The position numbers were made by a program, and so were the translations under genes. A stretch of DNA of 32,000 nucleotides from Candidatus Saccharimonadota bacterium (GTDB lineage Bacteria > Patescibacteriota > Saccharimonadia > Saccharimonadales > UBA4665), in assembly GCA_016700375.1 (NCBI GenBank), contig CP065016.1, positions 630,001-662,000 on the forward strand, written 5' to 3'. This document shows positions 3,842-31,116 of the stretch, in pieces. Below the pieces are notes generated by a model. The model was not told the origin of the DNA and did no database searches. It saw only the letters and a list, made by a program, of their open reading frames with translations. Numbering within the stretch: the first letter of the stretch is position 1; each line of letters begins with the position of its first letter.

Positions 3842-3851
3842 AATCATAAAA

Positions 3852-3965
3852 CGGCACCGTGCTATTTTCCCAGGGCTAGAAGACCCAAGTATTGTAACCG
3901 CTGAGAGGCTTGACTGCTGTGTTCGGTATGGGAACAGGTATCTCCCTCTCGCTATGGGCACCGAC
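3852..3965 (-). rRNA. rrf: 5S ribosomal RNA
   Basis: Minus-sense GTCGGTGCCCATAGCGAGAGGGAGATACCTGTTCCCATACCGAACACAGCAGTCAAGCC...GCACGGTGCCG matches the conserved 5S loop/helix pattern (CCCATnCCGAAC..AGTnAAGC). The ends pair with each other. Confidence 0.9.
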
Positions 3966-4170: not shown

Positions 4171-4500
4171 TGCACTTTTTGCCTATGAACCATGCACAAA
4201 AATGCACGATTCATAGGTCGTAAAAAGTCAATGTCCCTATTAGTACGCTTCGGCTACACATGTTGCCATGCTTACACCTTGCGCCTATCAACCAGATAGT
4301 CTTTCTGGGGGATCATGGGGAAATCTAATCTTGAGGCTAGTTTCGCGCTTAATATGCTTTCAGCGCTTATCTATTCCGCACGATAGCTACTCAGCAATGC
4401 CCTTGGTAGAACAACTGATACACCAGCGGTGCGTCCGCCCCGGTCCTCTCGTACTAGGGGTAGATCCTCTCAAATTTCCTTGCGTCCACAGCGGATATAA

Positions 4501-4534
<34 letters not shown>

Positions 4535-4562
4535 ACGTACCTCTTTAACCGGCGAACAGCCG

Positions 4563-4593
<31 letters not shown>

Positions 4594-4904
4594 AGATGAG
4601 CCGACATCGAGGTGCCAAACAGCATCGTCTATGTGAACTATTGGATGCTATAAGCCTGTTATCCCCGGCGTAACTTTTATCCGAAAGCGCTGCCGATACC
4701 ACACTCTTGTACAAATGTACTGACAGCGGAAAACTTACTCCGACTTTCGTCCCTGCTCGGCTTGTAGGCCTCACAGTCAAGCTAGCTTATGCGTATACAC
4801 TATCACTACGATTTCCATCCGTAGTTAGCTAACCTTTGAACGCCTCCGATACTCTTTAGGAGGCAACCGCCCCAGTTAAACTACCCACCAGACACGGTCC
4901 GGAA

Positions 4905-5082
4905 GCCGGAAATTGCATGCAATTTCTTCGGCTTGTGTACCAATTATCCTGTCACCTGTCACGCATGAATTAACAATTACCATGTAACAATTGAGTTCCA
5001 ATCGTTACAGGTTACATGGTCATCCAATGTGACACGTTACAGGTTACATGTGACACAACCCAAATTGTATACAATTTGCGGC
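4905..5082 (-). repeat. 23S insertion in about helix 79: GTTACA/TGTCAC module copy 1 with flanking palindromes
   Basis: The core at about 4935-5056 is homologous to 6306-6426 and 7078-7198. It is flanked by GAAATTGCATGCAATTTC (4909-4926) and CAAATTGTATACAATTTG (5061-5078). Confidence 0.85.
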
Positions 5083-5527
5083 TCCCGTAAGAACAAGATC
5101 ATAACAAGGGTGATATTTCACTGGTGGCTCCACCAAGACTAGCGTCTCAGCTTCAAAGCCTCTCACCTATACTACACATGTTATAACCCGGCTCAATGCC
5201 AAGCTGTAGTGAAGCTGCACGGGGTCTTTTCGTCCTGCTGCGGACAGACGGCATCTTTACCGTCAATGCACTTTCACCGAGCTCTTCGTTGAGACAGTAC
5301 CCATATCATTACGCCATTCGTGCGGGTCAGAACTTACCTGACAAGGAATTTCGCTACCTTAGGACGGTTATAGTTACCGCCGCCGTTCACTGGGGCTTCA
5401 GTTCGCTGCATACACAACTCCCCTTAACCTTCCAGCACTGGGCAGGCGTCAGCCCGTATACATCCACTTTCGTGTTAGCACAGACCTATGTTTTTGGTAA
5501 ACAGTTGCATGGGTTCTTTAGCTGCGG

Positions 5528-5800
5528 CCCCCTCACTCTAGCTACGCTAATGAGACAAAACCTACGGTTTTTTCTCATCGCTCCGGGCAAATGGAATACA
5601 TTTGCTCGGGCTGCTCTTTTTCCCTTCTGGGCTATAAGAACAGTTTTCGCATAGTGAGCTTTAGAGGTCAGCTTTCTAATTGATATGTCTCTAAAAATTG
5701 TTCGATTTGTCTCACTGTAAGAAGTTATAAACTTACATGCTGAGACAGGTTTTCAAAAAGAAAACTGGCTAACTCACCTGTCGTAGACAGAGTGAGGGGG
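5528..5800 (-). repeat. 23S insertion in helix 63 region (about 270 nt) containing leader cassette copy 2 (5552-5626)
   Basis: Closed by the 12-bp stem ccccctcactct (5528-5539) with agagtgaggggg (5789-5800). The interior has GAGACAAAACCTACGGTTTTTTCTCATCGC...CAAATGGAATACATTTG...GGGCTGCTCTTTTTCCCTT plus further hairpins. Confidence 0.8.
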
Positions 5801-6288
5801 CAGACCTTATCCCGAAGTTACGGTCGCTTGTTTGCCGAGTTCCTTAACGAAGAATCACTCGTACACCTTGGTCTTCTCGACCTGAGCACCTGTGTCGGTT
5901 TGCGGTACGGATGGCATGTACCACGCGTTATATTGCTTTTCTAGTCAGCACTTTCATAAGAATTCAACCTGATGGTCGTTTCATTCGTACGCATTTCTCG
6001 TACTTAGACGGATATAACCATGAATCCGCTCCTACTACTATGCCGCGCACATATAACAAATACATGCCAGTACGGGAATATTAACCCGTTGTCCATCGCC
6101 TACGCTACGCGCCTCGGCTTAGGACCGACTAACCCTGGGACGATTACCGTGGCCCAGGAAACCTTGCTCTTTCGGTGGGCAGGATTCTCACCTGCCTTAT
6201 GGTTACTCATTCCAACATTCTCACTTCCTCACGCTCCACCAAACCTCACGGTTCAACTTCAACGCTGAGAGGAACGCTCCTCTACCGA

Positions 6289-6443
6289 GCAATGCACAGC
6301 ATTGCAATTATCATGTCACAATTATCATGTCACAATGAATTACCGATTGGCGTGTAACGATTGAAGCTCAATGGTTACATGTTACAGGGTAATCCTAGGT
6401 GACATGTTACAAGTTACATGGTAATCGCGATGCCATGCATCGC
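6289..6443 (-). repeat. 23S insertion in helix 45: GTTACA/TGTCAC module copy 2 with flanking hairpins
   Basis: Core 6306-6426. Flanks are GCAATGCacaGCATTGC (6289-6305) and GCGATGCcatGCATCGC (6427-6443). Confidence 0.85.
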
Positions 6444-7057
6444 TCTCACATCTTCGGTGCTATGCTTAGCCCCGTTACATTTTCCGCGCAGGGTCTCTTG
6501 ACTAGTGAGCTGTTACGCACTCTTTAAATGAATGGCTGCTTCTAAGCCAACATCCTAGTTGTTTAAGAAACCCCACCTCGTTTCCCACTTAGCATAGACT
6601 GAGGGACCTTAGATGGTGATCTGGGCTGTTTCCCTTTTGAGCGACGAGCTTAGCCCCGCCGTTCTAACTGCTGTAGTTCCACTGATAGTATTCGTAGTTT
6701 GTCAAGGGTGGGTAATCTTGCGACCCCCAGTCCGAAACAGAGCTCTACCCCTACCAGCTACCGTACAACGCTAGCCCTAAAGCTATTTCGAGGAGAACCA
6801 GCTATCTCCAGGTTCGATTGGCATTTCACCGCTAACCACAGGTCATCCGGGCGTGTTGCAACTCGCTACGGTTCGGTCCTCCACGTCGTTTTACCGACGC
6901 TTCAACCTGCCCATGGTTAGGTCACCTGGTTTCGGGTCTATTTACTACGACTGAATGCCCTATTCAGACTCGCTTTCGCTTGGCTTACGTCATATGACTT
7001 AAGCTTGCCGTAGCAAATAACTCGTTGGATCGTTCTACAAAAAGCACGCCGTCACGA

Positions 7058-7219
7058 GCTCATCACTAATGATGAGCAATTAGCCTTTATCCTGTCACCT
7101 GTCACAATGGATTACCCATTACTGTGTAACGATTAAGGTTCAAACGTTACAAGTTACATGGTAATTCTATGTGACATGTTACAGGTCAATGGTTACATGC
7201 TCTTCACGCAGTGAAGAGC
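7058..7219 (-). repeat. 23S insertion in helix 25: GTTACA/TGTCAC module copy 3 with flanking hairpins
   Basis: Core 7078-7198. Flanks are GCTCATCActaaTGATGAGC (7058-7077) and GCTCTTCACgcaGTGAAGAGC (7199-7219). Confidence 0.85.
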
Positions 7220-7397
7220 CCGCTCCGACTCCTTGTACGCACACAATTTCAGGTTCTATTTCACTCCCCTCCCGGGGTTCTTTTAACCTTTCCCTCGCGG
7301 TACTTGTTCTCTATCGATCATGTAATATATTTAGCCTTGGAGGGTGGACCCCCCAGATTCAGTCAGGATTTCACGTGCCCCGACCTACTCGACAACC

Positions 7398-7560
7398 GTG
7401 TCTCGCAAGCGAGGCACAGAGTCATGAGTTAAGAGTCACGAGTTAAGAGTAGCTTGCCTCGGCTCTGCCGAGTTTATAAAACAGCAGCTACGCTGCTGGC
7501 ATTTTCCACTCTTGTCTCTTGTCTCTTGTCTCTTTCGTCTGTGTCTTGCTCGCAAGACAC
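7398..7560 (-). repeat. 23S domain I insertion built on GAGTTAAGAG / CTCTTGTCTC repeats
   Basis: The plus strand has ATGAGTTAAGAGTCACGAGTTAAGAG ... CTCTTGTCTCTTGTCTCTTGTCTC. It is bracketed by GTGTCTCGCaaGCGAGGCAC (7398-7417) and GTGTCTTGCtcGCAAGACAC (7541-7560). A related copy sits in the 23S leader at 8335-8395. Confidence 0.75.
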
Positions 7561-7644
7561 TTTGCAAATATAAGGTTGATGAAACTTGGCGTACCGGGCT
7601 ATCACCGTCTATGGCGCAGCTTTCCAACTGCTTCTGCTCGCCTC

Positions 7645-7810
7645 ATCAATTTCTAACCTTATGCTAGACACTGGTAGATCTAGCTGCCTCGTGTGGACTC
7701 CCGCAGAAGCGGACTCCCACACAAGGATGTTTGCAATGTCACAACCCCTAATTTACATTCGTCTACCAACTTATTTGCCAGTAATAAATTACCAGGCAAA
7801 AGCAAAATAG
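7645..7810 (-). other. 23S domain I expansion (about 150 nt extra relative to E. coli about 270-290)
   Basis: The segment between the conserved blocks GGAACAGCCCAAACC and GCAGAAGCAGTTGGAAAG is about 165 nt here, against about 25 nt in E. coli as recalled. It contains hairpins such as GTGTGGGAGTCCGCttctGCGGGAGTCCACAC. Boundaries are approximate. Confidence 0.55.
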
Positions 7811-8097
7811 GTTTGGGCTGTTCCGGATTCGCTCGCCACTACTACCGGAATCGTTGTTTACTTTCTCTTCCTCGCCCTACTAAGATGTTTCAGTTCAGGC
7901 GGTTACCTACTCACTATCCTATATATTCAGATAGCGGTGACTAGACATTACTCTAGCCGGGTTTCCCCATTCGGACATCTCCGGATCAAAACATATTTGG
8001 CTGTTCCCCGGAGCTTTTCGCAGCTCATCACGTCCTTCTTCGGTATTACATGTCAAGGCATCCGTTGTGTGCGCTTGAGTAACTTTTTACGAATAAC

Positions 8098-8183
8098 GGG
8101 ACAAAACTACGTTTTTTCCCGTCGCTTCGCTGCTCTTTTTCCTTAGTGGACAGACTTTTGCCGGAATAAATCCGTCAAAAGTC
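8098..8183 (-). repeat. two-hairpin leader cassette, copy 3 (ends about 5 nt before 23S helix 1)
   Basis: Plus strand GGGACAAAACTACGTTTTTTCCC-gTCGC-ttcGCTGCTCTTTTTCCTT, then GACTTTTG-CCGGAATAAATCCG-tCAAAAGTC. Confidence 0.75.
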
Positions 8184-8825: not shown

Positions 8826-8827
8826 CT

Positions 8828-8870
8828 TGGTGGGCGATGAGGGACTCGAACCTCCGACCTCGTCATTATC
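8828..8870 (-). pseudogene. orphan exact copy of the 3' half of tRNA-Ile (anticodon G34 to CCA)
   Basis: 43/43 nt identical to 8907-8949. Identity stops exactly at the first anticodon base. Confidence 0.9.
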
Positions 8871-8906
8871 TCCTCGGGAGAAAATGATTTGTAAATCAGT
8901 TCTAGC

Positions 8907-8983
8907 TGGTGGGCGATGAGGGACTCGAACCTCCGACCTCGTCATTATCAGTGACGCGCTCTAACCAGCTGAGCTAATCGCCC
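8907..8983 (-). tRNA. tRNA-Ile (anticodon GAU), CCA encoded
   Basis: Minus sense GGGCGAT-TA-GCTC-AGCTGGTTA-GAGC-G-CGTCA-CTGATAA-TGACG-AGGTC-GGAGG-TTCGAGT-CCCTC-ATCGCCC-A-CCA folds as a canonical cloverleaf. Confidence 0.95.
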
Positions 8984-9214: not shown

Positions 9215-9285
9215 GAGACACCTTTCATCAGGTTTTCTCATCGCACCGCGCAAATGGAATACATTTGTTCTCGGGCTTCCCTTCC
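9215..9285 (-). repeat. two-hairpin leader cassette, copy 4 (between tRNA-Ala and the minihelix/tRNA-Ile)
   Basis: Plus strand GAGACACCTTTCATCAGGTTTTCTC-aTCGC-accgcgCAAATGGAATACATTTG-ttctcGGGCTTCCCTTCC. Confidence 0.75.
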
Positions 9286-9306: not shown

Positions 9307-9383
9307 TGGTGGAGTGACGGGGACTCGAACCCCGGACCCCCTGCTTGCAAAGCAGGTGCTCTAGCCAACTGAGCTATCACCCC
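9307..9383 (-). tRNA. tRNA-Ala (anticodon UGC), CCA encoded
   Basis: Minus sense is GGGGTGATAGCTCAGTTGGCTAGAGCACCTGCTTTGCAAGCAGGGGGTCCGGGGTTCGAGTCCCCGTCACTCCACCA. It carries the G3:U70 identity pair and the anticodon loop TTTGCAA. Confidence 0.95.
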
Positions 9384-9457: not shown

Positions 9458-10048
9458 GTGATACGCGTGAACATAGGAATAGCACCGGCAATCGACGAAG
9501 ACATAGAAGATATCCGAGCCATACTCGAACATGGCATACGAAGCAAAATGTATCGGGGCGACCTTGCCTGGGGCGAAGCTGCCACTGACGAAAAACAGCT
9601 AAAGGCCATTATTGCTGGCGGCAATATGTACGTAGCCTACACAGAAGAAGACATAGTAGCGGTATTTATGCTGTTCTGGGACGACCCTGGGCGTTGGGGT
9701 CAGCAACCCCCTGTCGCCGGGTACCTACATCGTTTTGTCGTTGCGCCTGGGCTGCGTGGCCAAAACGTGGGTAGCCAAATAATAGACCTCATTTGCAAGG
9801 AGGTTGCCAAAAATGGCCGTCAATTCCTTCGCCTGACCGCCCCAGCCGATAACGAAAAACTAAAGGCATACCACCTAAAAAACGGCTTCACCCGTGCCGA
9901 CCATAAGGCCAACCCGACTCACCTCTCCGAACCCATAGCCTTCTTTGAGCGTCCCGCTGCAGCAGAGAAAAAAGCATCACAAACTTCACAGAAGAAGTCA
10001 TTCGCCCAAAAACTCCGCAACATCCGCCTCAGCCAACGCTATGAATAG
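9458..10048 (+). CDS. GNAT family N-acetyltransferase
   Basis: 196 aa with acetyl-CoA motif A (HRFVVAPGLRGQNVGSQII). The ORF-track start is the GTG at 9458. An in-frame GTG at 9467 lies 7 nt after an extended -10 box TGaTATAGT (9451-9459), so the mRNA may be leaderless. Confidence 0.8.
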   Translation: MIRVNIGIAPAIDEDIEDIRAILEHGIRSKMYRGDLAWGEAATDEKQLKAIIAGGNMYVAYTEEDIVAVFMLFWDDPGRWGQQPPVAGYLHRFVVAPGLRGQNVGSQIIDLICKEVAKNGRQFLRLTAPADNEKLKAYHLKNGFTRADHKANPTHLSEPIAFFERPAAAEKKASQTSQKKSFAQKLRNIRLSQRYE

Positions 10049-10119
10049 CCCCAATTTATGCTGCAGAAACAGGCCTAGGTTAGCCTAGAAGACTTCTGGG
10101 CTTAGGGCGTAGCGATTCA

Positions 10120-10710
10120 TTATTTCTTGTGGAGGTTTTGTCTCATCCCACATAAAATAAACTGGCACCCAGGGCTTCCACTGCGTCTAACAAAATAGAG
10201 GTGATATCTATGCGTTGAAGGCGGCTCAGTAATGACCGCATGTGCTGAGCCCGTTTGAGTCGCTTCATATGCTTGTATTTTCTCTACCTGCGCTTTTGCA
10301 GCAGCACAGTTGTGACCAACCATTACGCACACATAGTTCACTGCGAGTTTTTCGAGCTCAATCGCTTCCGGGTCGGTCGCAGAAGGTACATATGCTGCGG
10401 CTGGGTATCTTCGAGTATTCTCATCGTATCTAGCACGGGTAATGTCTACCCTCGCCCGTGAAAGCTCAACCTGCAACCGAGTATTTTCACGCTCTAACCG
10501 TTTTTCCGGAGTGTTCGGAACATACTTTGCTATAGCTACAGACAGTAACAACAGCATTAGGACACCGAAAAACGTCAATGACGATTCGTTCGTGCGCCAT
10601 CGTTTTATAAATGAGGGCTTCACTTCTATGGGGTTTTTTGGACTAGGAAATTCTCTTGGTTGCATAATAAGTCTAGTATACCTTGGCTTCAACAAGACTG
10701 TCGACCCCAT
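10120..10710 (-). CDS. hypothetical membrane-anchored protein
   Basis: 196-aa ORF with one hydrophobic helix (LTFFGVLMLLLLSVAIA) followed by a charged coiled-coil-like stretch. No family was recognised. The start is uncertain (M1 or M16). Confidence 0.55.
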   Translation of the reverse strand: MGSTVLLKPRYTRLIMQPREFPSPKNPIEVKPSFIKRWRTNESSLTFFGVLMLLLLSVAIAKYVPNTPEKRLERENTRLQVELSRARVDITRARYDENTRRYPAAAYVPSATDPEAIELEKLAVNYVCVMVGHNCAAAKAQVEKIQAYEATQTGSAHAVITEPPSTHRYHLYFVRRSGSPGCQFILCGMRQNLHKK

Positions 10711-10824
10711 GAAACGGCACTCTCATTAGCTTCACATGATCGTAATTTTGAGCTATTACTCTCGATTGCATTTTATTTTAAACATCACAATACTTCATAA
10801 AGAAGTTGCCATATGCTTAGTAGT

Positions 10825-11883
10825 TCACATTGCAGCGATGTTGTAGTGTGTGGCGGAATAGATGTACTGATCTATAAAAAGTTGCTTGAAGGGGACAATG
10901 GAGTTTTGTTCGTAGAAAATGAGTGTGGCTTCTTTGTAAGCCGTTTCGTCTACCGCACGGTACGATATGGGAGCATAGCCGTTTGCAAGCAAAACGCCAT
11001 TTGCGAGCAAACGAGCTGTCCTTTTGTTGCCGTCGGCAAAGGGCTGTATGTAGCTCATACCCAATACAACCATCAGCGCTTTTTCGTAAACAGAATCAAT
11101 TGCGTTGACGTAGACTAGTAGCTGCTCCAATGCCTCTCTAATCTGGAAAGCATTGCCGAGAGGAACATATTCTGTACCAGTTATGCCAACAACCGTCTGT
11201 CGCAAATTTCGGGCAACACCTAATTCTGAGACGGCAAGCTCCTGTATCTTTTCTATTGCTGAGACGCTTGGTTCGTGCCAAAGCTCAAGATTTTCATAGA
11301 CAAATGTAAAGGCAGCTTTCTGCCCGAGCAACATTTGCACCTCAAACTCAGTATTTTTTGGCGACTTTATGCCATAAAGTAGTAGCTGTTCGGTATCGAG
11401 TAGTGTGTATGTATTTCCTTCTATCCGGGCAGATTTCCATGACATCTCTACAACAAAACGCTCCAATTCACGCTTGCGAACATCGCTATTCTCATTCGCT
11501 TTGTTTCGATAACTTTCTGTCGCGCTATCAAGCTGTTCATTTTCTTGCTCACCCACCATTGTAACTGGGGGCAACTCAAATAGATGATGGTTATAGCCCG
11601 TCTGCATTATCCGGTCTTGCTGTGGTTTTCCCAAGTAGGTATCCACGTCAAACGTTCGGAGCAGTAGTCCTTTGCGCTCTAACGTATATCGTATCGACCG
11701 TCCGGCACCAATTCGCGCTAGATACCCCGCGGCCAACAGATTCGAAAGGCTACGTTTTATAGTTACCAGAGATGTTTTTCTCCCGCTACGGGCGTGTATC
11801 TCTGACGAAGAGTAGCTTTTACCCTTCTCGAAGTAGCTTAGAACTATATTATTCGTATCATTCATAGATAATAATCGTATCAT
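10825..11883 (-). CDS. Fic/Doc family protein with N-terminal winged-helix domain; active-site His replaced by Gln
   Basis: The ORF track gives 10825..11946. The Fic core motif reads QPFADGNKRTAR (11011-11046). The first 21 codons of the long form overlap the 16S terminator hairpin. I therefore prefer the ATG at 11883, 9 nt after TATAAT (11898-11893), or the ATG at 11865. Confidence 0.8.
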   Translation of the reverse strand: MIRLLSMNDTNNIVLSYFEKGKSYSSSEIHARSGRKTSLVTIKRSLSNLLAAGYLARIGAGRSIRYTLERKGLLLRTFDVDTYLGKPQQDRIMQTGYNHHLFELPPVTMVGEQENEQLDSATESYRNKANENSDVRKRELERFVVEMSWKSARIEGNTYTLLDTEQLLLYGIKSPKNTEFEVQMLLGQKAAFTFVYENLELWHEPSVSAIEKIQELAVSELGVARNLRQTVVGITGTEYVPLGNAFQIREALEQLLVYVNAIDSVYEKALMVVLGMSYIQPFADGNKRTARLLANGVLLANGYAPISYRAVDETAYKEATLIFYEQNSIVPFKQLFIDQYIYSATHYNIAAM

Positions 11884-11897
11884 AGTGATACGATTAT
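11871..11897. promoter_or_regulatory. 12-bp perfect inverted repeat (operator-like) over the Fic gene promoter/start
   Basis: ATAATCGTATCA-tag-TGATACGATTAT overlaps the TATAAT box and the preferred ATG. Confidence 0.5.
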
Positions 11898-11902
11898 AGT
11901 CA

Positions 11903-11937
11903 ACAGAAAAGAAGGCCTCTCGCAAGTGATGGCCTTC
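11903..11937 (-). terminator. intrinsic terminator after 16S rRNA
   Basis: GAAGGCC-13 nt-GGCCTTC followed on the minus strand by TTTTCTGTT. It lies downstream of the 16S processing stem. Confidence 0.6.
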
Positions 11938-11971
11938 TTTGTTCATTCAGATTGTATCAGTGCTTTCCTGA

Positions 11972-11998
11972 TTAAAAACTGAATAGTGCAATCAACGT
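11972..11998 (-). other. 16S precursor processing stem, 3' strand
   Basis: ttaaaaactgaatagtgcaatcaacgt pairs with 13711-13720 plus 13746-13762 (27 bp, 1 mismatch). An extra hairpin at 13721-13744 is inserted in the 5' strand. Confidence 0.75.
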
Positions 11999-12136
11999 TG
12001 TTATCACATAAGGTTCAGAAACTGAATGTGTCGTCCGACTTGCGCCGGAAATTGGATTGTCAGTACTGATTTACAATCCATCGACATCGACCTAACTCTG
12101 CATTGATTACTCGTTTGCAGGTTAGTTTCTCCCTAG

Positions 12137-13608
<1,472 letters not shown>

Positions 13609-14736: not shown

Positions 14737-17307
14737 CTACTGTCCACCCACATCATCCAGGGCATCATCCTCATCTAGTTGTTCGGTCTTCTCTACGAGG
14801 GCCAAGGATACAACTTGGTCGCCGTCGTTGAGACGCATAATGCGAACACCCTGCGTTGCGCGGCCGAGTGCAGGAATATCTTTTAGCCCAAGACGAATGG
14901 TTTGACCGTTTTGGCTGATGATTATGACTTCCTGCTCGTCTGTGTCACTTAATGTGTTCACACCGACTAACTCACCCGTTTTACTGTTTACCACGGCAGA
15001 ACGAATGCCAACGCCCCCGCGAGCATGTGGCGTAAACTGAGCAACTTTTGTGCGCTTACCGTAACCATAGCGACTAATCACAAATATGCTACTGTGCTCA
15101 TCCACTACGTCCATGCCAATGACTCGGTCATCGGCACGTAGCCGTATACCACGCACGCCGCGGCTTACTCGACCCATGGGTCGGGAATCGCGCTCGTGGA
15201 AGCGTATAGCCTGTCCTTGGCTTGTGCTTATAATGACTTCATTGTCGCCCGTAGTCATTCGAATCCATTTCAGCTCGTCGCCTTCGTCCAGGTTAATGGC
15301 TATGAGCCCAGTTGTTCGAACGTTTTTGTACTGTTCAAACGGTGTTTTCTTTACAACGCCACGGACGGTACACATTATGAGATTTGCGCTTGTTTCCTTT
15401 TCTGTCTTCGACACGTTTATGACAGCGCTTACCGTTTCTTCTGGCTGTAATTGCAGGAGGTTAACAATGGCTATTCCCTTCGCATTTAAGGAGGCGGCGG
15501 GCACTTCATATGTCTTCAGGCGGAAGACGCGACCTTTGTTCGTGAAGAACAGTAGAAAATCATGCGTAGATGCATTTACAACGTGTTCGATAACATCTTC
15601 CTCACGTGTAGCCATGCCCCGACGACCTTTTCCACCCCTTCCTTGGCGTTTGTATTCTGCCAAAGTACTGCGTTTTACATAGTTTGCCGATGTAAGCGTT
15701 ACAACTACCTGCTCATCAGGCACAAGGTCTTCGTCGCTCAACTTGTTAAGTTCGCTCGCAACAACGCGCGTTCGACGTTCGTCTCCGTACTGTTTTTTAA
15801 GCTGTTTCATCTCATCTTTTATGATGCCCAGTATTTTCTTTTCGTCGGCAAGAATGGCCTCTAGTTCAGCAATGAGTTTCATAAGTTCGACTAGTTCGTC
15901 TTCAATTTTCTTGCGCTCAAGGCCGGCGAGCGTTCGAAGCTGCATGGCAAGGATAGCTTTGGCTTGAATTTCAGATAGTGCAAATTTTTTAATCAAATTT
16001 GCCTGAGCTTCTTCGGTGGTCTGACTGGCTCGAATAGTATTGATGACTTCGTCGATATTATCGAGTGCAATCTTGAGCCCTTCGAGCACATGGGCTCGGT
16101 CTTTCGCCTTACGGAGTTCAAACTCTGTTCTTCGGCGCACAACCTGCTGTCTGTGTTTGATATGTTCGCTTAGAATATCCTGCAGGCCAAGCACTCGAGG
16201 CTGTATGCCGTCTATAAGGGCCATCATGTTGTAGTGGAAGCTGGTCTGAAGCGGGGTGAGCTTATACAACTGATTGAGCAACTTTTTGGGGTAGGCGTCC
16301 TTTTTGAGGTCTATAACAATCCGGACGCTGCCGCGAGCACTTTCATCGCGCAAATCGCTGATACCCGATATTTTCTTTTCTTTCACAAGGTCGGCAATTT
16401 TGATAACTAAACTTTCTTTGTTTAGTGCGTACGGAATCTCACTAATAACAATTTGGTGCCTGCCCTTGACACCTTCGACTATCTCGGCAACACCGCGCAC
16501 CACCACTCCGCCGCGACCGGTTGCGTAAGCCTGGCGAATAGAGCCAGCACCATACACAATACCTCCCGTCGGGAAGTCAGGACCAGTAATGAACTCAAGC
16601 AGTTTGTCGAGTGGGGCATCGGGATGGTCTATTTTATATACCGTAGCGTCTATAACTTCGCTTAGGTTGTGGGGCGGAATGTTCGTAGCCATACCCACAG
16701 CAATACCAAGCTGTCCGTTTAGCAGTAGGTTTGGCAGTTTAGCCGGCAGCACGGTAGGTTCCTGTGTGGTGCCGTCATAGTTATCACGAAAATCTACCGT
16801 ATCTTTGTCTATATCTGCCAAAAGCTCATCGGCCAACCGATGCATTTTGGCTTCGGTATACCGCATAGCTGCGGGCGGGTCACCGTCCATACTACCGAAG
16901 TTGCCCTGCCCGTTGACGAGCAAATAGCGCGTTGACCAGGGTTGCGCCAAGCGCACCATAGAGTCATATATAGAGGCGTCACCGTGGGGGTGATATTTAC
17001 CCATTACTGCACCAACCACGTTTGCACTCTTGCGGTGCCGCGCACTGCTGCGAAGCCCCTCTTCGTTCATAGAATACATAATGCGGCGATGCACCGGCTT
17101 CATACCGTCACGCACGTCTGGGAGAGCCCTGTCGATGATAACGCTCATAGAGTAGCGCAGGTAGCTATCTTCCATGACACTCTCGACCGTGCGGCCTTCG
17201 ACCACGCGCGAATGGTCCGACTGTATAATTTCTACTTCGTTCCGATGCTCAAGTCGCTCTTCGTCCTCGACATCAAGTGGTGTGTTATCTAGTGTTTGGT
17301 CATCCAT
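14737..17307 (-). CDS. gyrA: DNA gyrase subunit A
   Basis: 856 aa. It has the active-site/QRDR region [23 protein letters not shown], the catalytic [10 protein letters not shown], and C-terminal beta-pinwheel repeats. Confidence 0.98.
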
Positions 17308-23190: not shown

Positions 23191-23495
23191 GGAGCCGAAG
23201 AAGCCAGCGGTGCGGCCAGCTTCGCTGGACGGCAGGCTGGCTGGTGCGAAACTTGTGATTAATTAAAACACGCCTTAGGCATATTACCTAGGCGTTGAAT
23301 TTACATAGGTCGAAAGGCGATAAATCCGCTCAATATAAATTAATGTATAGCGCTTATCGCCTTCGACTGACTGACCGCTCTTGTCGCCTTTAGGGCAACT
23401 CGAGCGACTATTGTTTGTTGTTTTTGTTTTGGCTTAGCCAAGTTCAATACTACTACATCATGCTTGATTTGTCAATACGCTTTTGCTCGTCCTGA

Positions 23496-24538
23496 TATAC
23501 TAAGCCCCAATCCCTCCGACACCTCGGTGTGTAGAATTGGGGCATATGTGTATGAAGAAGAACCTAACCCGACATCAAGTTATTGCCTATCGTAAACGAG
23601 TGTTAACTGAAGCCGATGCGAAAGGCGCGGCAATCGCTGCCCGAATGTTTGGGATCCATCGGGATACTATCTATGCTTGGCGGATCGAACTGTTCCCGCA
23701 GAAGCCTGGACCAAAAGGCAGGGTATCCTGGCAGACGAATGAAGACATTGAGGATTTGGTGCTACAAATCAGGCTGGGACTATCCTATGGCCCGAAGCGA
23801 ATCGTCGATGAGATGAGTGACTCTGGAATATCCATTGGCGAGAAAGCTGTCCGCGGCATTATTGAACGAGCCGACCTCGTAAAGCACCAGAAACATCCAA
23901 AGAAAAAGCCAACGAGACCGTTCTACGCGCCCTATCCAGGCTACCGAGTGCAGATTGACACTAAGGCTGCACCGGTTCGTCCGGACGAAGATAAACGACG
24001 GAGTCGGAGACAGCAGTTTACAGCGATAGACATTGTCAGCAAGATCCGGTACCTGGCGGTCAAGGATGGCTTGTCGAATAGCAACTCAATCGCCTTTGTG
24101 CGTGAAGCCCTGGCGTTCTACGAATCGATTGGTATTACGGTGGAATGTGTCCAGACAGATAACCACTCCACGTTCACCAATTTGTCTACTGGCGGTAACA
24201 AAAAGCGTGACCATGAGCTCAGACGTATCCACCCGTTCACGCAGTACCTGCTCGACCGGGGCATCGAGCACAAGCTATCCCGACCGGGTACACCCCAACA
24301 TAATGGTTTTGTCGAGCGGAGCCATCGGACAGACGAAGAAGAGTTTTACCACGTCACCAAAACGACCGAGCTTGATGTCGTCGCGTTCAACGAAGCAATG
24401 AAACTATGGCAGAACGAATACAATCGCGTGAGACGGCATAGCAGCTGCAATAACCTGCCGCCAATGGAGCACTATGAAGCGGTATGGAAAGGAACAGTAA
24501 CTCATGTCTAAGTGTCTGGACAATTGGGGCTTAGTACA
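23496..24538 (+). mobile_element. IS481-family insertion sequence, intact (1043 bp)
   Basis: Terminal inverted repeats are TATACTAAGCCCCAAT (23496-23511) and its complement TGTACTAAGCCCCAAT (24538-24523). A 6-bp direct duplication TCCTGA sits at 23490-23495 and 24539-24544. There is a single DDE transposase ORF. Confidence 0.9.
23537..24511 (+). CDS. IS481-family transposase (HTH + rve/DDE integrase core)
   Basis: The N-terminal HTH is AARMFGIHRDTIYAWR. The DDE residues lie in VQIDTK, VQTDNHSTF and NGFVERSHRT. The likely real start is the ATG at 23546 or 23552 (MKKNLTRHQ) rather than the TTG at 23537. Confidence 0.9.
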   Translation: MGHMCMKKNLTRHQVIAYRKRVLTEADAKGAAIAARMFGIHRDTIYAWRIELFPQKPGPKGRVSWQTNEDIEDLVLQIRLGLSYGPKRIVDEMSDSGISIGEKAVRGIIERADLVKHQKHPKKKPTRPFYAPYPGYRVQIDTKAAPVRPDEDKRRSRRQQFTAIDIVSKIRYLAVKDGLSNSNSIAFVREALAFYESIGITVECVQTDNHSTFTNLSTGGNKKRDHELRRIHPFTQYLLDRGIEHKLSRPGTPQHNGFVERSHRTDEEEFYHVTKTTELDVVAFNEAMKLWQNEYNRVRRHSSCNNLPPMEHYEAVWKGTVTHV

Positions 24539-24615
24539 TCCTGACTTTTGCTCGTCCTGAATAAGTCAAACAGAATTGTTATTCCTGGCCGCACAAAAGC
24601 ATAGGCATTTTGTTA

Positions 24616-27730: not shown

Positions 27731-28115
27731 GTTAGATTACCAGCTAATCGCTAGTCCTTTCATAGATTAGAGGAAAGTCCGGGCAGCATAGGGAGTGACA
27801 GCCGCTAACGGCGGCCGGGGGCGACCCTAGGGAAAGTGCCACAGAAACGAAACAGCCAGCTTGCTGGTTACGATGAAACGAGTGTCCGCCGTAAGGTGGA
27901 TGGGAATTCTGGCGAACTTGTTCGCGTTAAGTCCCACGGTAAGAGCGCACAACACCCTATGGTGACATAGGGAGTAGGTAAACCCTGTCTGCTGCAAGGA
28001 GTGAGCTATACACGTTCCCGCGATGCTCACGTTTGACCCCGCTCGAGCCTGCGAGCAATTGCAGGCCTAGATAGATGATTAGCCTCGACAGAACCCGGCT
28101 TACAAGTAACCTAAC
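27731..28115 (+). ncRNA. rnpB: RNase P RNA, bacterial type A
   Basis: It has the universal GAGGAAAGTCCGGGC (27770-27784), GGTAAGAGCGCAC, and ACAGAACCCGGCTTA near the 3' end. P1 is formed by GTTAGATTAC (27731-27740) with GTAACCTAAC (28106-28115). Confidence 0.9.
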
Positions 28116-28122
28116 ATAATAT

Positions 28123-28156: not shown

Positions 28157-28867
28157 TTAGTCGACACGTTGAGCTTGCGAGCCAAGCTGGGCATCGAGAC
28201 ACTTGTTCACCTCGGCATCGGCCAGCTTATTGAGCTCGCGCGGCACGTGGTCAAATGACACTTTCTCAAACTTTGGAAGAAGCTGTTGTATAGCATCGTG
28301 AATAGGCCATAGGTCGCGGTTTTTCACTTTGAATATTTTTTTCATTTGGTTCACCACCAGCATACTGTCCATATACACGTGCACGCTCCTCGCCTGAAGC
28401 CGTAGCGCAGCCTCCAAGCCAAACTTCAAGGCCTGATACTCCGCCTGATTGTTTGTTGTAATTCCCAGAAAAACCCCCTCACTATGTACGATGTTCCCGT
28501 CCATGTCGAGCAGTACATACCCGCTTGCGGAGGGGCCAGGATTGCCCCGTGAGCCTCCATCCGCATACAATTGCACCTCTGTTATTTGCGTAGTATTTTT
28601 ATCATCACTACTTTCCGGTACTCCTTTTTCATCGCCCTCGGCAACTGCGTCAATCCTCTTTGCGAGCTCCCAGTCTCGGTCTGTAATCATCTGCTTCGGC
28701 TCGTGTGTCGACAGCCAAAATTCAACAACATTCCATTCATTCTGCCAGCGCGGATGATGGTCGAGGTCATTCACAATTGCACTCACCTTTTCCATAAATG
28801 CCCATGCATGATGAAAGTCGCTAAAGACAAATTGTTTATAAAGCCCATGTTTTGTTTCGGTCCACAT
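28157..28867 (-). CDS. fusion protein: pterin-4a-carbinolamine dehydratase (PCD/DCoH)-like domain + RNase HI-like domain
   Basis: Residues 1-75 match PCD (FVFSDFHHAWAFMEKVSAIVNDLDHHPRWQNEWNVVEFWLSTHE...ITDRDWELAKRID). Residues about 100-236 match RNase H, with the DEDD residues in YADGGSRGNPG, NNQAEYQAL, VYMDSMLVV and NKLADAEVN. Confidence 0.85.
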   Translation of the reverse strand: MWTETKHGLYKQFVFSDFHHAWAFMEKVSAIVNDLDHHPRWQNEWNVVEFWLSTHEPKQMITDRDWELAKRIDAVAEGDEKGVPESSDDKNTTQITEVQLYADGGSRGNPGPSASGYVLLDMDGNIVHSEGVFLGITTNNQAEYQALKFGLEAALRLQARSVHVYMDSMLVVNQMKKIFKVKNRDLWPIHDAIQQLLPKFEKVSFDHVPRELNKLADAEVNKCLDAQLGSQAQRVD

Positions 28868-29441: not shown

Positions 29442-29567
29442 GGTAGTATTTTACCACATTATGAGGTGTTTGTCATACTTACGCTAGTGTTTTCTTGCCA
29501 CTACCCCTATAATGATGGGTAAGTGGAACACCCACTCGATGCCTAGAGCCACTCCATAGGAGCAGGT

Positions 29568-29681
29568 ATGGCGAAAAATCCGTATCAAACATTTAAGCTC
29601 GTCATGAGTCTACTGTTTGATACGGTCACACTGGAAACGGTGTCGGGTAGCGTAGGCTATCGCTCATGGCGAGCTTTTTAA
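29568..29681 (+). CDS. candidate 37-aa small protein
   Basis: This ORF is below the ORF-track size cut-off and encodes MAKNPYQTFKLVMSLLFDTVTLETVSGSVGYRSWRAF. TAGGAG lies 6 nt upstream. The ORF ends 22 nt before the next gene. Confidence 0.3.
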   Translation: MAKNPYQTFKLVMSLLFDTVTLETVSGSVGYRSWRAF

Positions 29682-30433: not shown

Positions 30434-30685
30434 ATGAGATATCACTGCCTGTATAAACTATCTGGGAATACCCGCTGTAACCGCTCGATACCACGCGGTT
30501 ATCTTCTCTGTAAAGAGCACAGAGGTGTGCATACCGTTTTGCCGGTGGTTGAGCCGACAATATCTCAAAACCGGCTTGCTCGAGGCGTAGAAGCAATCTG
30601 TGTAGCTCGTACATCAATGGCTGAACCTCACCCAAAGGGCAAGATATTCGTAAGAGATAAAATCGGCCGGTCGGTGCTGCTATGA
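30434..30685 (+). CDS. hypothetical small Cys/His-rich protein
   Basis: 83 aa. An ATGA stop/start overlap with the next gene (30682-30685) suggests translational coupling. It has a CxxxxxxxxxC...CxxH pattern near the N-terminus. Confidence 0.4.
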   Translation: MRYHCLYKLSGNTRCNRSIPRGYLLCKEHRGVHTVLPVVEPTISQNRLARGVEAICVARTSMAEPHPKGKIFVRDKIGRSVLL

Positions 30686-31116
30686 CAGCCTCAGGTATCG
30701 GTCGGCCGCCACAATTCTCAAATGCCGCACAGTTACAGTTATTGATAGACAATTACTTTTCTTCAGCCACAAAGTCATCACCCGCAAGACCTCTAACTAT
30801 AACCGGCCTTATGCTTCACTGCGGGTTTGAGAGTCGGCAGTCATTTTATGACTATGAGAAAAAACCCGAGTTTTCTTACACTATAAAAAGAGCCCGGCTT
30901 ATGATTGAAAACGTTTATGAGGAACTCTTGCAGAGCGGTCGAGGAGCGGGCGCAATTTTTGCTCTTAAAAACTTCGGCTGGACGGATAAAAGCGAAGTAA
31001 GTATTGAAAGGGACTCAATAGACTATTCGAGCATGACAGATGAAGAACTTGAATCACGTCTGATAGACAGCATTAAAAGAGATTACGGCGTGACGCTTCC
31101 ACGAAAGATGCTGTAG
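30682..31116 (+). CDS. phage terminase small subunit-like protein
   Basis: 144 aa. It shows the TerS-like pattern GRPPQFSNAAQLQLLIDNYF...ITGLMLHCGF...FYDYEKKPEFSYTIKRARLMIE...IFALKNFGWTDK. Confidence 0.7.
   Translation: MTASGIGRPPQFSNAAQLQLLIDNYFSSATKSSPARPLTITGLMLHCGFESRQSFYDYEKKPEFSYTIKRARLMIENVYEELLQSGRGAGAIFALKNFGWTDKSEVSIERDSIDYSSMTDEELESRLIDSIKRDYGVTLPRKML

Follow-up and report, generated by a model that had tools for sequence, protein, structure and literature searches.

The window analysed here is a 32,000-nucleotide stretch of a Candidatus Saccharimonadota genome (GenBank contig CP065016.1, positions 630,001-662,000), and its 23S ribosomal RNA (rRNA) gene contains one structured module, here termed module-1, at three separate hairpins. 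The question raised by this locus is whether such a module is specialised for rRNA or is a more general mobile sequence that the ribosome tolerates. A first-pass annotation of the window favoured the former, i.e. a non-autonomous element specifically colonising rRNA helix tips, with a recruited binding platform as the alternative. The evidence described below points instead, with a probability of about 0.65, to a low-copy palindromic element that resembles MITEs (transposable elements of the miniature inverted-repeat type) and that, within rRNA, survives at permissive helix tips only. The module-1 copies are homologous and fold as palindromes, they lie in rRNA loops and between protein genes, they occur in both orientations, they differ in presence between strains, and their sites are shared with other, interchangeable families.

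Loci from relatives and other genomes (L003-L074) were fetched for comparison with the window, following a search of species-representative genomes and JGI metagenome contigs with patterns of the conserved core, the matches then being scored by nhmmer. All of the related loci are from Saccharimonadales, and the host lineage is thus within the Candidate Phyla Radiation (CPR; Saccharibacteria).

Three Homologous Inserts in One 23S rRNA Gene

The 23S gene is ~950 nt longer than the 2925-position bacterial model, the additional sequence being spread over six insertion sites when mapped onto Escherichia coli rrlH. The gene and its three module-1 copies, in helices 79, 45, and 25 (H79, H45, and H25), are as follows.

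4219-8089, minus strand: 23S rRNA gene, 3871 nt (Rfam LSU_rRNA_bacteria, 2473.7 bits, model positions 1-2925)
4909-5075, minus strand: copy A, H79 insert of 167 nt; core 4932-5058 (nhmmer E 1.6e-33; fold z -7.7); flanking palindromes 5061-5078 (CAAAUUGUAUACAAUUUG) and 4909-4926 (GAAAUUGCAUGCAAUUUC)
6295-6432, minus strand: copy B, H45 insert of 138 nt by covariance model; core 6304-6429 (nhmmer E 4.8e-32; fold z -7.0); flanking palindromes 6427-6443 (GCGAUGCAUGGCAUCGC) and 6289-6305 (GCAAUGCUGUGCAUUGC)
7055-7221, minus strand: copy C, H25 insert of 167 nt; core 7075-7200 (nhmmer E 6.7e-34; fold z -7.3); flanking palindromes 7199-7219 (GCUCUUCACUGCGUGAAGAGC) and 7058-7077 (GCUCAUCAUUAGUGAUGAGC)

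The three cores align over their full length (~125 nt) with a mean column identity of 73%, in agreement with the three-quarters identity that had been judged by eye. Pairwise blastn matches, over 95-117 nt with the 32 kb as database, are significant in each case (A versus C, 83%, E 5e-25; B versus C, 82%, E 1e-21; A versus B, 75%, E 6e-18), and a profile built from the cores gives three full-length matches only in the window (nhmmer, E ~1e-36). The similarity spans the full ~120 nt, non-heptad parts included, and is not limited to the short GTTACA words. The paired half-site TGTMAC-N-TGTMAC occurs 11 times in the window, compared with an expectation of 0.02, with all 11 occurrences lying within modules. 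In terms of extent, the annotation had the cores right, but missed the whole inserts of 138-167 nt with a small palindrome on each side; likewise, its count of three module-1 copies stands, but further inserts in the same gene (7642-7813, 7392-7579, and 5511-5800), considered below, had escaped it.

Each core is ~70% identical to its own reverse complement by blastn and is predicted to form a single long hairpin with imperfect pairing; the fold z-scores range from -5.9 to -6.9 without the flanks and from -7.0 to -7.7 with them. A central hairpin of ~10 bp is present in all copies, with loops that differ, as had been reported; the 15-nt pairing described for the first copy also holds on direct reading, 13 of the 15 pairs being Watson-Crick and the other two an A-G and a G-G. 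The terminal inverted repeats are imperfect (GATTATCC-TGTCAC-N-TGTCAC ... GTGAC-N-GTGACA-GGATAATC). The ends, GATTATCC-TGTCAC and GTGACA-GGATAATC, were set from the intergenic copies described below and recur in the rRNA copies; the interior consists of heptad-spaced TGTAAC/GTTACA words together with the central hairpin. The description of the module as free of open reading frames (ORFs) and bounded by terminal inverted repeats is borne out, since no ORF of at least 100 amino acids fits within any module and the ends are shared across copies. The sole ORF of this size that overlaps an insert (5196-5654, plus strand) is mostly the opposite strand of conserved 23S sequence and gives no sign of coding.

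Pairing within the core is register-specific, with 78.6% of cells paired compared with 28-41% after sliding one partner along the other. Copies that are otherwise 65-80% identical have almost the same half-site words, which are conserved beyond what pairing alone demands; this pattern fits sequence-specific recognition at least as well as it fits structure alone.

Placement at Helix Tips

Rfam covariance-model alignments, together with alignment to E. coli rrlH, place all three copies inside hairpin loops, as proposed for H79, H45, and H25. The H25 insert begins inside the hairpin, after model position ~583 (E. coli ~545); the H45 insert comes after model position 1218, inside the loop (E. coli ~1172); and the H79 loop comprises 167 nt, compared with 2 in the consensus (E. 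coli ~2200-2212). H25 and H45 are the classical sites of 23S intervening sequences (IVSs), and the annotation was correct in pointing to them; the covariance models and the comparison with empty alleles both indicate that, as in IVSs, an extended stem-loop replaces the H25/H45 tip. The four occupied rRNA sites, i.e. these three and helix 6 of the 16S rRNA (see below), have no evident target sequence in common.

Previous work has shown that E. coli rRNA stays functional with Tn5-derived insertions at H25, H45, H63, H14-18, and the tip of 16S helix 6, and that the insertion-tolerant positions coincide with sites of eukaryotic expansion segments (PMC2441807). H79 is absent from the tolerated list, with the neighbouring H78 being present (PMC2441807).

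Occupancy Differs between Closely Related Strains

Six 23S genes were compared, i.e. those of the window, L035, L043, L062 (CP064993), L064, and L065. At each of the six sites a gene has either no insert, with approximately the E. coli length, or one of 80-320 nt, and the combination differs by genome, giving a mosaic of filled and empty sites with a sporadic strain distribution like that of IVSs. The H45 site, for example, is empty in L062 and L064 and is filled by other families in L043 and L065. The closest comparison is with L035, a 23S fragment 98-99% identical to that of the window, which has the H45 copy (98% identical). At H25 it has a plain 12-nt tip (CGGCTTGTCCGG), compared with 167 nt in the window, and at H79 it has a different insert of 121 nt, of unrelated sequence, on the same basal stem.

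In L059 and L061, two assemblies representing a relative with 99% GyrA identity, module-1 is present in 16S helix 6 (variable region V1) with flanks that are 100% identical to the 16S of the window.

L059 13567-13745 and L061 ~11871-12050: module-1 copy in 16S helix 6, inverted relative to the 23S copies

Here ~180 nt, including module-1, stand in place of the 22-nt helix 6 tip of the window, and in the covariance model the first variable hairpin of the 16S has 167 nt versus 16. The inverted orientation is as expected for insertion of a palindrome at the DNA level. The empty H25 of L035 and the filled helix 6 of L059/L061 together constitute insertion polymorphism of the type seen with MITEs, and the suggestion of a mobile element is supported in that near-identical strains differ in its presence. 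L059 also has a separate hairpin-rich insertion of 109 nt (~13385-13493), flanked by GACAAATTC and TTTTTTGAAGAGTTTGATCC and located immediately upstream of where the mature 16S begins (5' end); neither the window nor L062 has this insertion.

Copies outside rRNA

Full-length module-1 copies without an rRNA flank are present at five independent intergenic loci in related Saccharimonadales.

L023: between a TrmB-like regulator gene and a methyltransferase gene
L031: between gyrB and gyrA of a ~72% identical relative
L032: between HD hydrolase and alpha/beta hydrolase genes
L034: between two ORFs of no assigned function
L056: downstream of infB

These copies nearly exactly fill short gaps between co-directional housekeeping genes, and Rfam found no rRNA in the loci that carry them. 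Three other assemblies (L072-74), each independent, contain the L023 copy as well. No empty allele was found at the L023 locus, relatives at 93% TrmB identity also being filled. A special conservation of this copy, as initially suggested by 1 difference per 125 nt between L023 and L072 compared with 11% in the wide flanks, was rejected because the immediate flanks are equally conserved and the 11% value is inflated by misaligned stretches.

Since full-length copies lie between protein genes without an rRNA flank, module-1 is not rRNA-specific, and in this respect the first-pass annotation does not hold. It had also considered that abundant copies at non-rRNA loci would make the module a generic MITE; such copies are present, but the family is low-copy rather than abundant. 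There is some truth in the proposed enrichment, in that every copy in the examined DNA of this species is within rRNA (three in the window 23S and one in the 16S of L059/L061). Module-1 is absent from relatives at 91-93% GyrA identity, and viral contigs gave no module matches.

Two groups of more distant matches were rejected as module copies. Those in Bacteroidota and Acidobacteriota cover only the heptad half of the profile (20-30 bits), as do those in Anabaena/Dolichospermum, which are tandem heptamer arrays scoring 20-30 bits compared with 100-120. The cyanobacterial contigs, which are among L003-L028 (e.g. L022 4403-4814), contain long tandem TGTAAC-N/TGTCAC-N arrays and no full module; these arrays are probably convergent repeats of the short tandemly repeated repetitive (STRR) type.

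A different insertion, of 110 nt with AGAGCAG-type repeats, is present in L063 (9891-10000) at the gyrB-gyrA junction, the same junction as holds module-1 in L031, and ends in a Shine-Dalgarno-like AAAGGAAA before gyrA. This junction looks like a recurrent landing site.

Other Hairpin Families and Conserved Junction Palindromes

Further inserts of the window 23S gene, and a related sequence in the transfer RNA (tRNA) spacer, are as follows.

7392-7579, minus strand: module-2 insert, E. coli ~352-368; three GAGACAA heptads, central hairpins, and flanking palindromes
7642-7813, minus strand: further hairpin inserts, E. coli ~270-290 (H16/H18 region); 186-324 nt among relatives
5511-5800, minus strand: H63-region inserts with several hairpins; one sub-motif of ~50 nt recurs in the tRNA spacer
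9233-9283, minus strand: copy of the two-hairpin H63 sub-motif in the tRNA-Ala/tRNA-Ile spacer (88% over 51 nt, blastn E 2e-11)

Clustering of the inserts gives module-1 (H25, H45, H79), module-2, family 3, and several singletons, all of which are long hairpins. Module-2 has the same architecture as module-1 with a different sequence, and is present at E. coli ~340 in the window and L035; the window insert is 84% identical to the H45 insert of L043, and neither L064 nor L065 has an insert at the site that it occupies in the window. In L065, H25 and H45 are both filled by family 3, the two copies being 91% identical. Several of the hairpins consist of heptads of their own, namely GAGACAA in module-2, TTGATC in family 3, and GATTAAC in an ectopic copy in L068. 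Besides module-1, at least two families of heptad-repeat hairpins are thus interchanged across these six 23S sites in relatives.

Two resemblances to spacer sequence were also observed. The two-hairpin motif of ~50 nt (GCCCGAG..AAATGTATTCCATTTGC..GCGATGAGAAAA) is common to 9233-9283 and to 5560-5610 within the H63 insert, and the insert of L043 at E. coli ~340 resembles the sequence just upstream of the 23S 5' end (window 8126-8180).

The palindromes flanking the H25 insert are homologous in the window, L043, L062, and L065, with the cores between them belonging to three different families. On direct reading, the flanking palindromes are locally perfect, and differences between members of a pair or between orthologues are compensated within each palindrome (e.g. 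CAC/GUG to CAU/AUG, and A-U to G-C); pairing between the two flanking palindromes would carry mismatches. From these compensated local palindromes a conserved junction scaffold can be inferred, in which two small hairpins accompany a variable long arm. The minimum-free-energy fold prefers a single rod instead of this two-hairpin junction.

An Antisense H79 Paralogue Upstream of ftsA

L020 and L046, assemblies that differ by 4.2%, both contain, antisense in the spacer from map to ftsA, a piece of 222 nt with 100% identity to window 4886-5107, i.e. to the H79 insert bordered at either end by ~25 nt of true 23S sequence. In every relative fetched, the map-ftsA spacer has a homologous stretch, likewise antisense, just upstream of ftsA (...CAATTTGYGGCTCCCGTAAGAACAAGATCATAACAA...), from which it follows that this H79 paralogue is old. 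That L020/L046 represent a chimeric contig was rejected, given that the same junctions occur in two assemblies 4.2% apart and that the homologous stretch is present in all relatives. The paralogue was located, antisense in the map-ftsA spacer in each case, at the following positions.

L046: 805-1026
L020: 4055-4276
L068: 4290-4540
L067: 3287-3600
L066: 3247-3480

The paralogue has true 23S flanks (UUGUUAUGAUCUUGUUCUUACGGGAGCC ... GGCUUCCGGACCGU), and its internal hairpin differs by lineage. In L068/L071, which are probably of the window's own species, it is complete, both 23S flanks surrounding a different hairpin; in CP064992 it contains one full and one partial diverged module-1 copy; and in CP064993 it is reduced to a flank of 20 nt plus a hairpin of unrelated sequence. 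Judged from these sequences, the cassette of the paralogue turns over as in the 23S gene, and was exchanged at least once very recently with a 23S of the window type. Scanning the surroundings of the paralogue for promoters and terminators yielded no decisive signal. The paralogue itself could be a recombination donor, an rRNA mimic, or a relic.

Origin of Module-1 and Competing Explanations

Several properties of module-1 are those of a MITE. The cores (~125 nt) and inserts (138-167 nt) are non-coding and well below 300 bp, terminal inverted repeats are present, and multiple dispersed copies, at four rRNA sites and five intergenic loci, occur across related genomes. Of the element proposed by the first-pass annotation, the mobile, non-autonomous character and the position at helix tips are upheld by strain polymorphism and loop placement; the restriction to rRNA is not, given the intergenic copies.

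Other observations weigh against a MITE-like origin. The L031 copy does have a 9-bp direct repeat (TATTTAATG) on its two sides, a possible target-site duplication that speaks for such an origin; both genes are intact there, the repeat duplicates the overlap of gyrB stop and gyrA start, and AAGGAG is placed just upstream of the gyrA ATG. Of the five intergenic copies, however, this is the only one so flanked, with no duplication at L023, L032, or L034. In rRNA, the copies take the place of the old hairpin tip and do not interrupt it. No cognate transposase was identified, in that the two transposase genes in the examined sequence have ends unrelated to that of module-1 (GATTATCCTGTCAC): the rve-type insertion sequence (IS) of the window (23489-24545) was rejected as an autonomous parent on the basis of its unrelated 34-nt inverted repeats, and DDE_Tnp_1 of L065 was rejected as parent of any family since no similarity was found. 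The copy number is low, with only 2 loci matching the strict pattern in a species-representative metagenome-assembled genome, and no intergenic copies were seen in ~150 kb of unbiased sequence from close relatives beyond the rRNA copies. The window copies differ from one another by 17-25%, and so are not recent duplicates. Covariation in the core is not above that in shuffled alignments, because the half-site words are nearly invariant; despite the register-specific pairing, covariation is therefore ruled out as proof of selection on the core at the RNA level, and selection on RNA structure is not demonstrated. Finally, the conserved adapters with swapped cores and the ectopic H79 paralogue fit cassette exchange at least as well as they fit transposition.

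Recombinational exchange of cassettes, by homologous recombination or gene conversion at tips with conserved junction scaffolds (the small flanking hairpins), either between strains or with ectopic rRNA paralogues, with the intergenic copies as a side product, is a serious rival in part; we regard it as possible, if rather unlikely, as the overall explanation. It would account for the clean replacement of old tips without target-site duplications, for the homology of the H25 adapters in the window, L043, L062, and L065 despite three core families, and for 23S genes that are 98-99% identical and differ at cassettes only. The antisense paralogue with 23S flanks in the map-ftsA spacer of all relatives fetched, and its identity to the window 23S over 222 nt in contigs otherwise differing by 4.2%, would also be explained. 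By contrast, the intergenic copies (L023, L031, L032, L034, and L056) lack rRNA homology arms, and a true insertion mechanism is therefore needed; moreover, the same core is present at four rRNA sites with unrelated flanks, the 16S copy is inverted, and ectopic paralogues of H25, H45, and 16S helix 6 were not encountered. In a more elaborate form, scaffolds at six or more tips would accept interchangeable heptad hairpins, with the paralogue upstream of ftsA as a donor or reservoir (homology arms of ~28 and 22 nt) for recombinational swapping with the single-copy 23S gene, and with cassettes also seeding intergenic sites. This is a speculative scheme that we consider unlikely; were it true, strains would differ in the RNA of the ribosome surface with the ribosome core unchanged, and it would represent the natural, ongoing birth and turnover of expansion segments in a bacterium.

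Specific homing of a non-autonomous element to rRNA helix tips gains from the presence of one family in four different rRNA helix loops and from the confinement of all copies in the examined DNA of this species to rRNA; as rRNA makes up well under 1% of the ~1.25-Mb genome, three copies in a single 23S gene would represent strong enrichment. The five independent non-rRNA loci with full-length copies, and the lack of a shared target sequence among the four rRNA sites, make such homing improbable, and enrichment can arise from tolerance, since E. coli accepts artificial insertions at the same sites (PMC2441807). Equally improbable is a recruited functional platform, in which a protein would bind the UGUAAC/GUUACA words of the rod (or the words would work as DNA) and the inserts, as domesticated expansion segments, would confer a function particular to the lineage on the ribosome or on operon mRNAs. 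The near-invariance of the half-site words across otherwise diverged copies, the maintenance of pairing mostly by conserved sequence rather than by covariation, the compensatory changes in the flanking junction hairpins, and the location of copies within operons of core genes are all in keeping with a function. Set against these are the difference in presence between near-identical strains and the empty sites in several relatives, the unrelated heptad families (GAGACAA, TTGATC, GATTAAC) that the same sites hold elsewhere, the occurrence of both orientations in rRNA, and an intergenic copy no more conserved than its immediate flanks. An artefact of assembly or chance low-complexity similarity of heptads is scarcely credible: metagenome assemblies do often break or mis-join at rRNA genes, and unrelated genomes of cyanobacteria do contain tandem arrays of these heptad words, but the latter match only the heptad half of the profile at a fraction of the score, the similarity covers the full 120 nt, and independent assemblies repeat the copies (L035 H45, L043 H25, L020/L046 H79, L059 and L061 16S helix 6, and L072-74 for L023), which together refute it.

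Under the preferred interpretation, that of a low-copy MITE-like element, module-1 would have been inserted at the DNA level in either orientation, probably by a putative enzyme recognising the half-site words, which are most simply viewed as binding sites of a transposase or recombinase. Copies persist in short operon gaps and in the loops of solvent-exposed helices (23S H25/H45/H79 and 16S helix 6), and would survive only at such permissive sites; occupancy of the sites turns over fast, with at least three families using them. At H79, exchange with the ectopic paralogue upstream of ftsA may also move cassettes. The element is predicted to be co-transcribed and to fold as a rod of ~55 bp, with a mismatch at about every seventh pair, mounted on two small site-specific hairpins, probably as a four-way junction. 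With respect to the fate of the RNA, trimming by RNase III, which would give a fragmented 23S rRNA like that of classical IVSs, is marginally more likely than not, retention as a bacterial expansion segment being almost as likely.

Other Features of the Window

The remaining members of the rRNA operon, and the neighbouring GyrA gene, are as follows.

12137-13607, minus strand: 16S rRNA
9307-9383, minus strand: tRNA-Ala
8907-8983, minus strand: tRNA-Ile
3849-3965, minus strand: 5S rRNA
14737-17307: GyrA gene; the protein has 100% identity to an NCBI entry for a Candidatus Saccharibacteria bacterium

Protein genes are present inside the operon, in the interval between 16S and tRNA-Ala (overall 9458-11946). 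They comprise a Fic-domain protein (10825-11946, minus strand), a 196-residue ORF of no assigned family (10120-10710, minus strand), and, on the opposite strand, a GNAT acetyltransferase (9458-10048, plus strand); in relatives this interval holds other genes (HTH_38, PadR-like, Fic). Directly downstream of tRNA-Ile (~8827-8906) lies a tRNA-like 3' half, comprising a T-arm (GGTTCGAGTCC) and, with a terminal CCA, an acceptor strand (GGTCGGAGGTTCGAGTCCCTCATCGCCCACCA); L043 has this stretch in conserved form, and it was called by neither ARAGORN nor Rfam.

Across the window, no intron family scored above the gathering threshold of Rfam, and the inserts have no ORF. They do not show the group I or group II ribozyme fold or the LAGLIDADG or GIY-YIG reading frame of intron and homing-endonuclease elements, the usual type of rRNA insertion in the CPR, in keeping with the survey result for Saccharibacteria (PMC11270868). 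The IS at 23489-24545 encodes an rve-family integrase/transposase (23537-24511) and is flanked by a direct repeat (CTTTTGCTCGTCCTGA); L059-L061, the relatives at 99%, have a corresponding gap ~1 kb shorter and so appear to lack the IS. Class A RNase P RNA (27732-28118) and a LOOT RNA motif (29540-29661; Rfam, 67 bits) are also encoded, as is a fusion of an RNase H/RVT_3 domain with a pterin-4a-carbinolamine dehydratase domain (28157-28867); an ORF resembling phage DNA-packaging gp3 (30682-31116) hints at a prophage remnant.

Comparison with Known Systems

The origin of IVSs and expansion segments is an old question, and here one repeat family is found both in intergenic regions and at four rRNA tips. 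Alleles that differ in presence between strains with identical rRNA flanks link insertions of the IVS type directly to MITE-like mobile DNA, and support the view that insertions survive wherever the ribosome tolerates them. In practical terms, length polymorphisms in 16S V1 and in 23S rRNA will affect primers, quantitative PCR targets, and rRNA-based binning for Saccharibacteria; the helix 6 insert would alter V1-based primers and 16S length, and module-1 could serve as a strain marker.

The 23S IVSs of Salmonella, Yersinia, Campylobacter, Leptospira, and Coxiella are like module-1 in that extended stem-loops replace the tips of H25/H45 and in that they are sporadic among strains; IVSs are thought to spread horizontally. 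The module-1 family differs in occurring in three 23S helices, in 16S helix 6, and between protein genes, in the presence of six expanded sites in one gene, and in the lack of an IVS-encoded ORF (S23p or 23S_rRNA_IVP); IVSs, moreover, are defined by RNase III excision, which for module-1 is a candidate fate. In the CPR, many short rRNA insertions are present at known IVS sites and have been described as suspected, uncharacterised IVSs; in Saccharibacteria, 64 of 66 rRNA insertions are short and without an intron or homing-endonuclease gene (PMC11270868). The present finding gives a concrete identity to these numerous short insertions of Saccharibacteria.

Bacterial MITEs, including the Neisseria Correia elements, ERIC, RUP, and Chunjie, are like module-1 in being ~100-150 bp, ORF-less, and bounded by terminal inverted repeats, and in lying between co-transcribed genes so as to form long hairpins in the transcript, which in the case of Correia elements are cut by RNase III (PMC10969869). 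By contrast, module-1 has no consistent target-site duplication (Correia elements give TA), its copy number is very low, and no cognate transposase was found. In a 2024 review of prokaryotic MITEs the word rRNA never occurs.

Rickettsia palindromic elements are likewise palindromes of ~100-150 bp that survive in functional genes at permissive surface positions, including one in a transfer-messenger RNA gene (PMC1458961). They are mostly in protein-coding genes and high-copy, whereas module-1 is at rRNA tips and low-copy, and the sequences are unrelated. The hairpin elements of sponge mitochondria occur both intergenically and within rnl/rns, there at sites prone to differ in length (PMC2800124), and so share with module-1 both its dual distribution and the logic of tolerance. 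They are, however, organellar, with stems of 8-15 bp and without heptad half-sites or junction adapters, whereas module-1 is chromosomal and in a free-living bacterium. Yeast GC clusters and the double-hairpin elements of Allomyces are further mitochondrial hairpin repeats.

There is a parallel in position with the expansion segments of eukaryotes and archaea, which are at identical sites (ES7L at H25, ES15L at H45, ES27L at H63, ES31L at H79, and small-subunit helix 6). Expansion segments, however, remain part of the mature rRNA and for the most part do not vary within a lineage, whereas the occupancy of the same tips by module-1 is polymorphic between strains.

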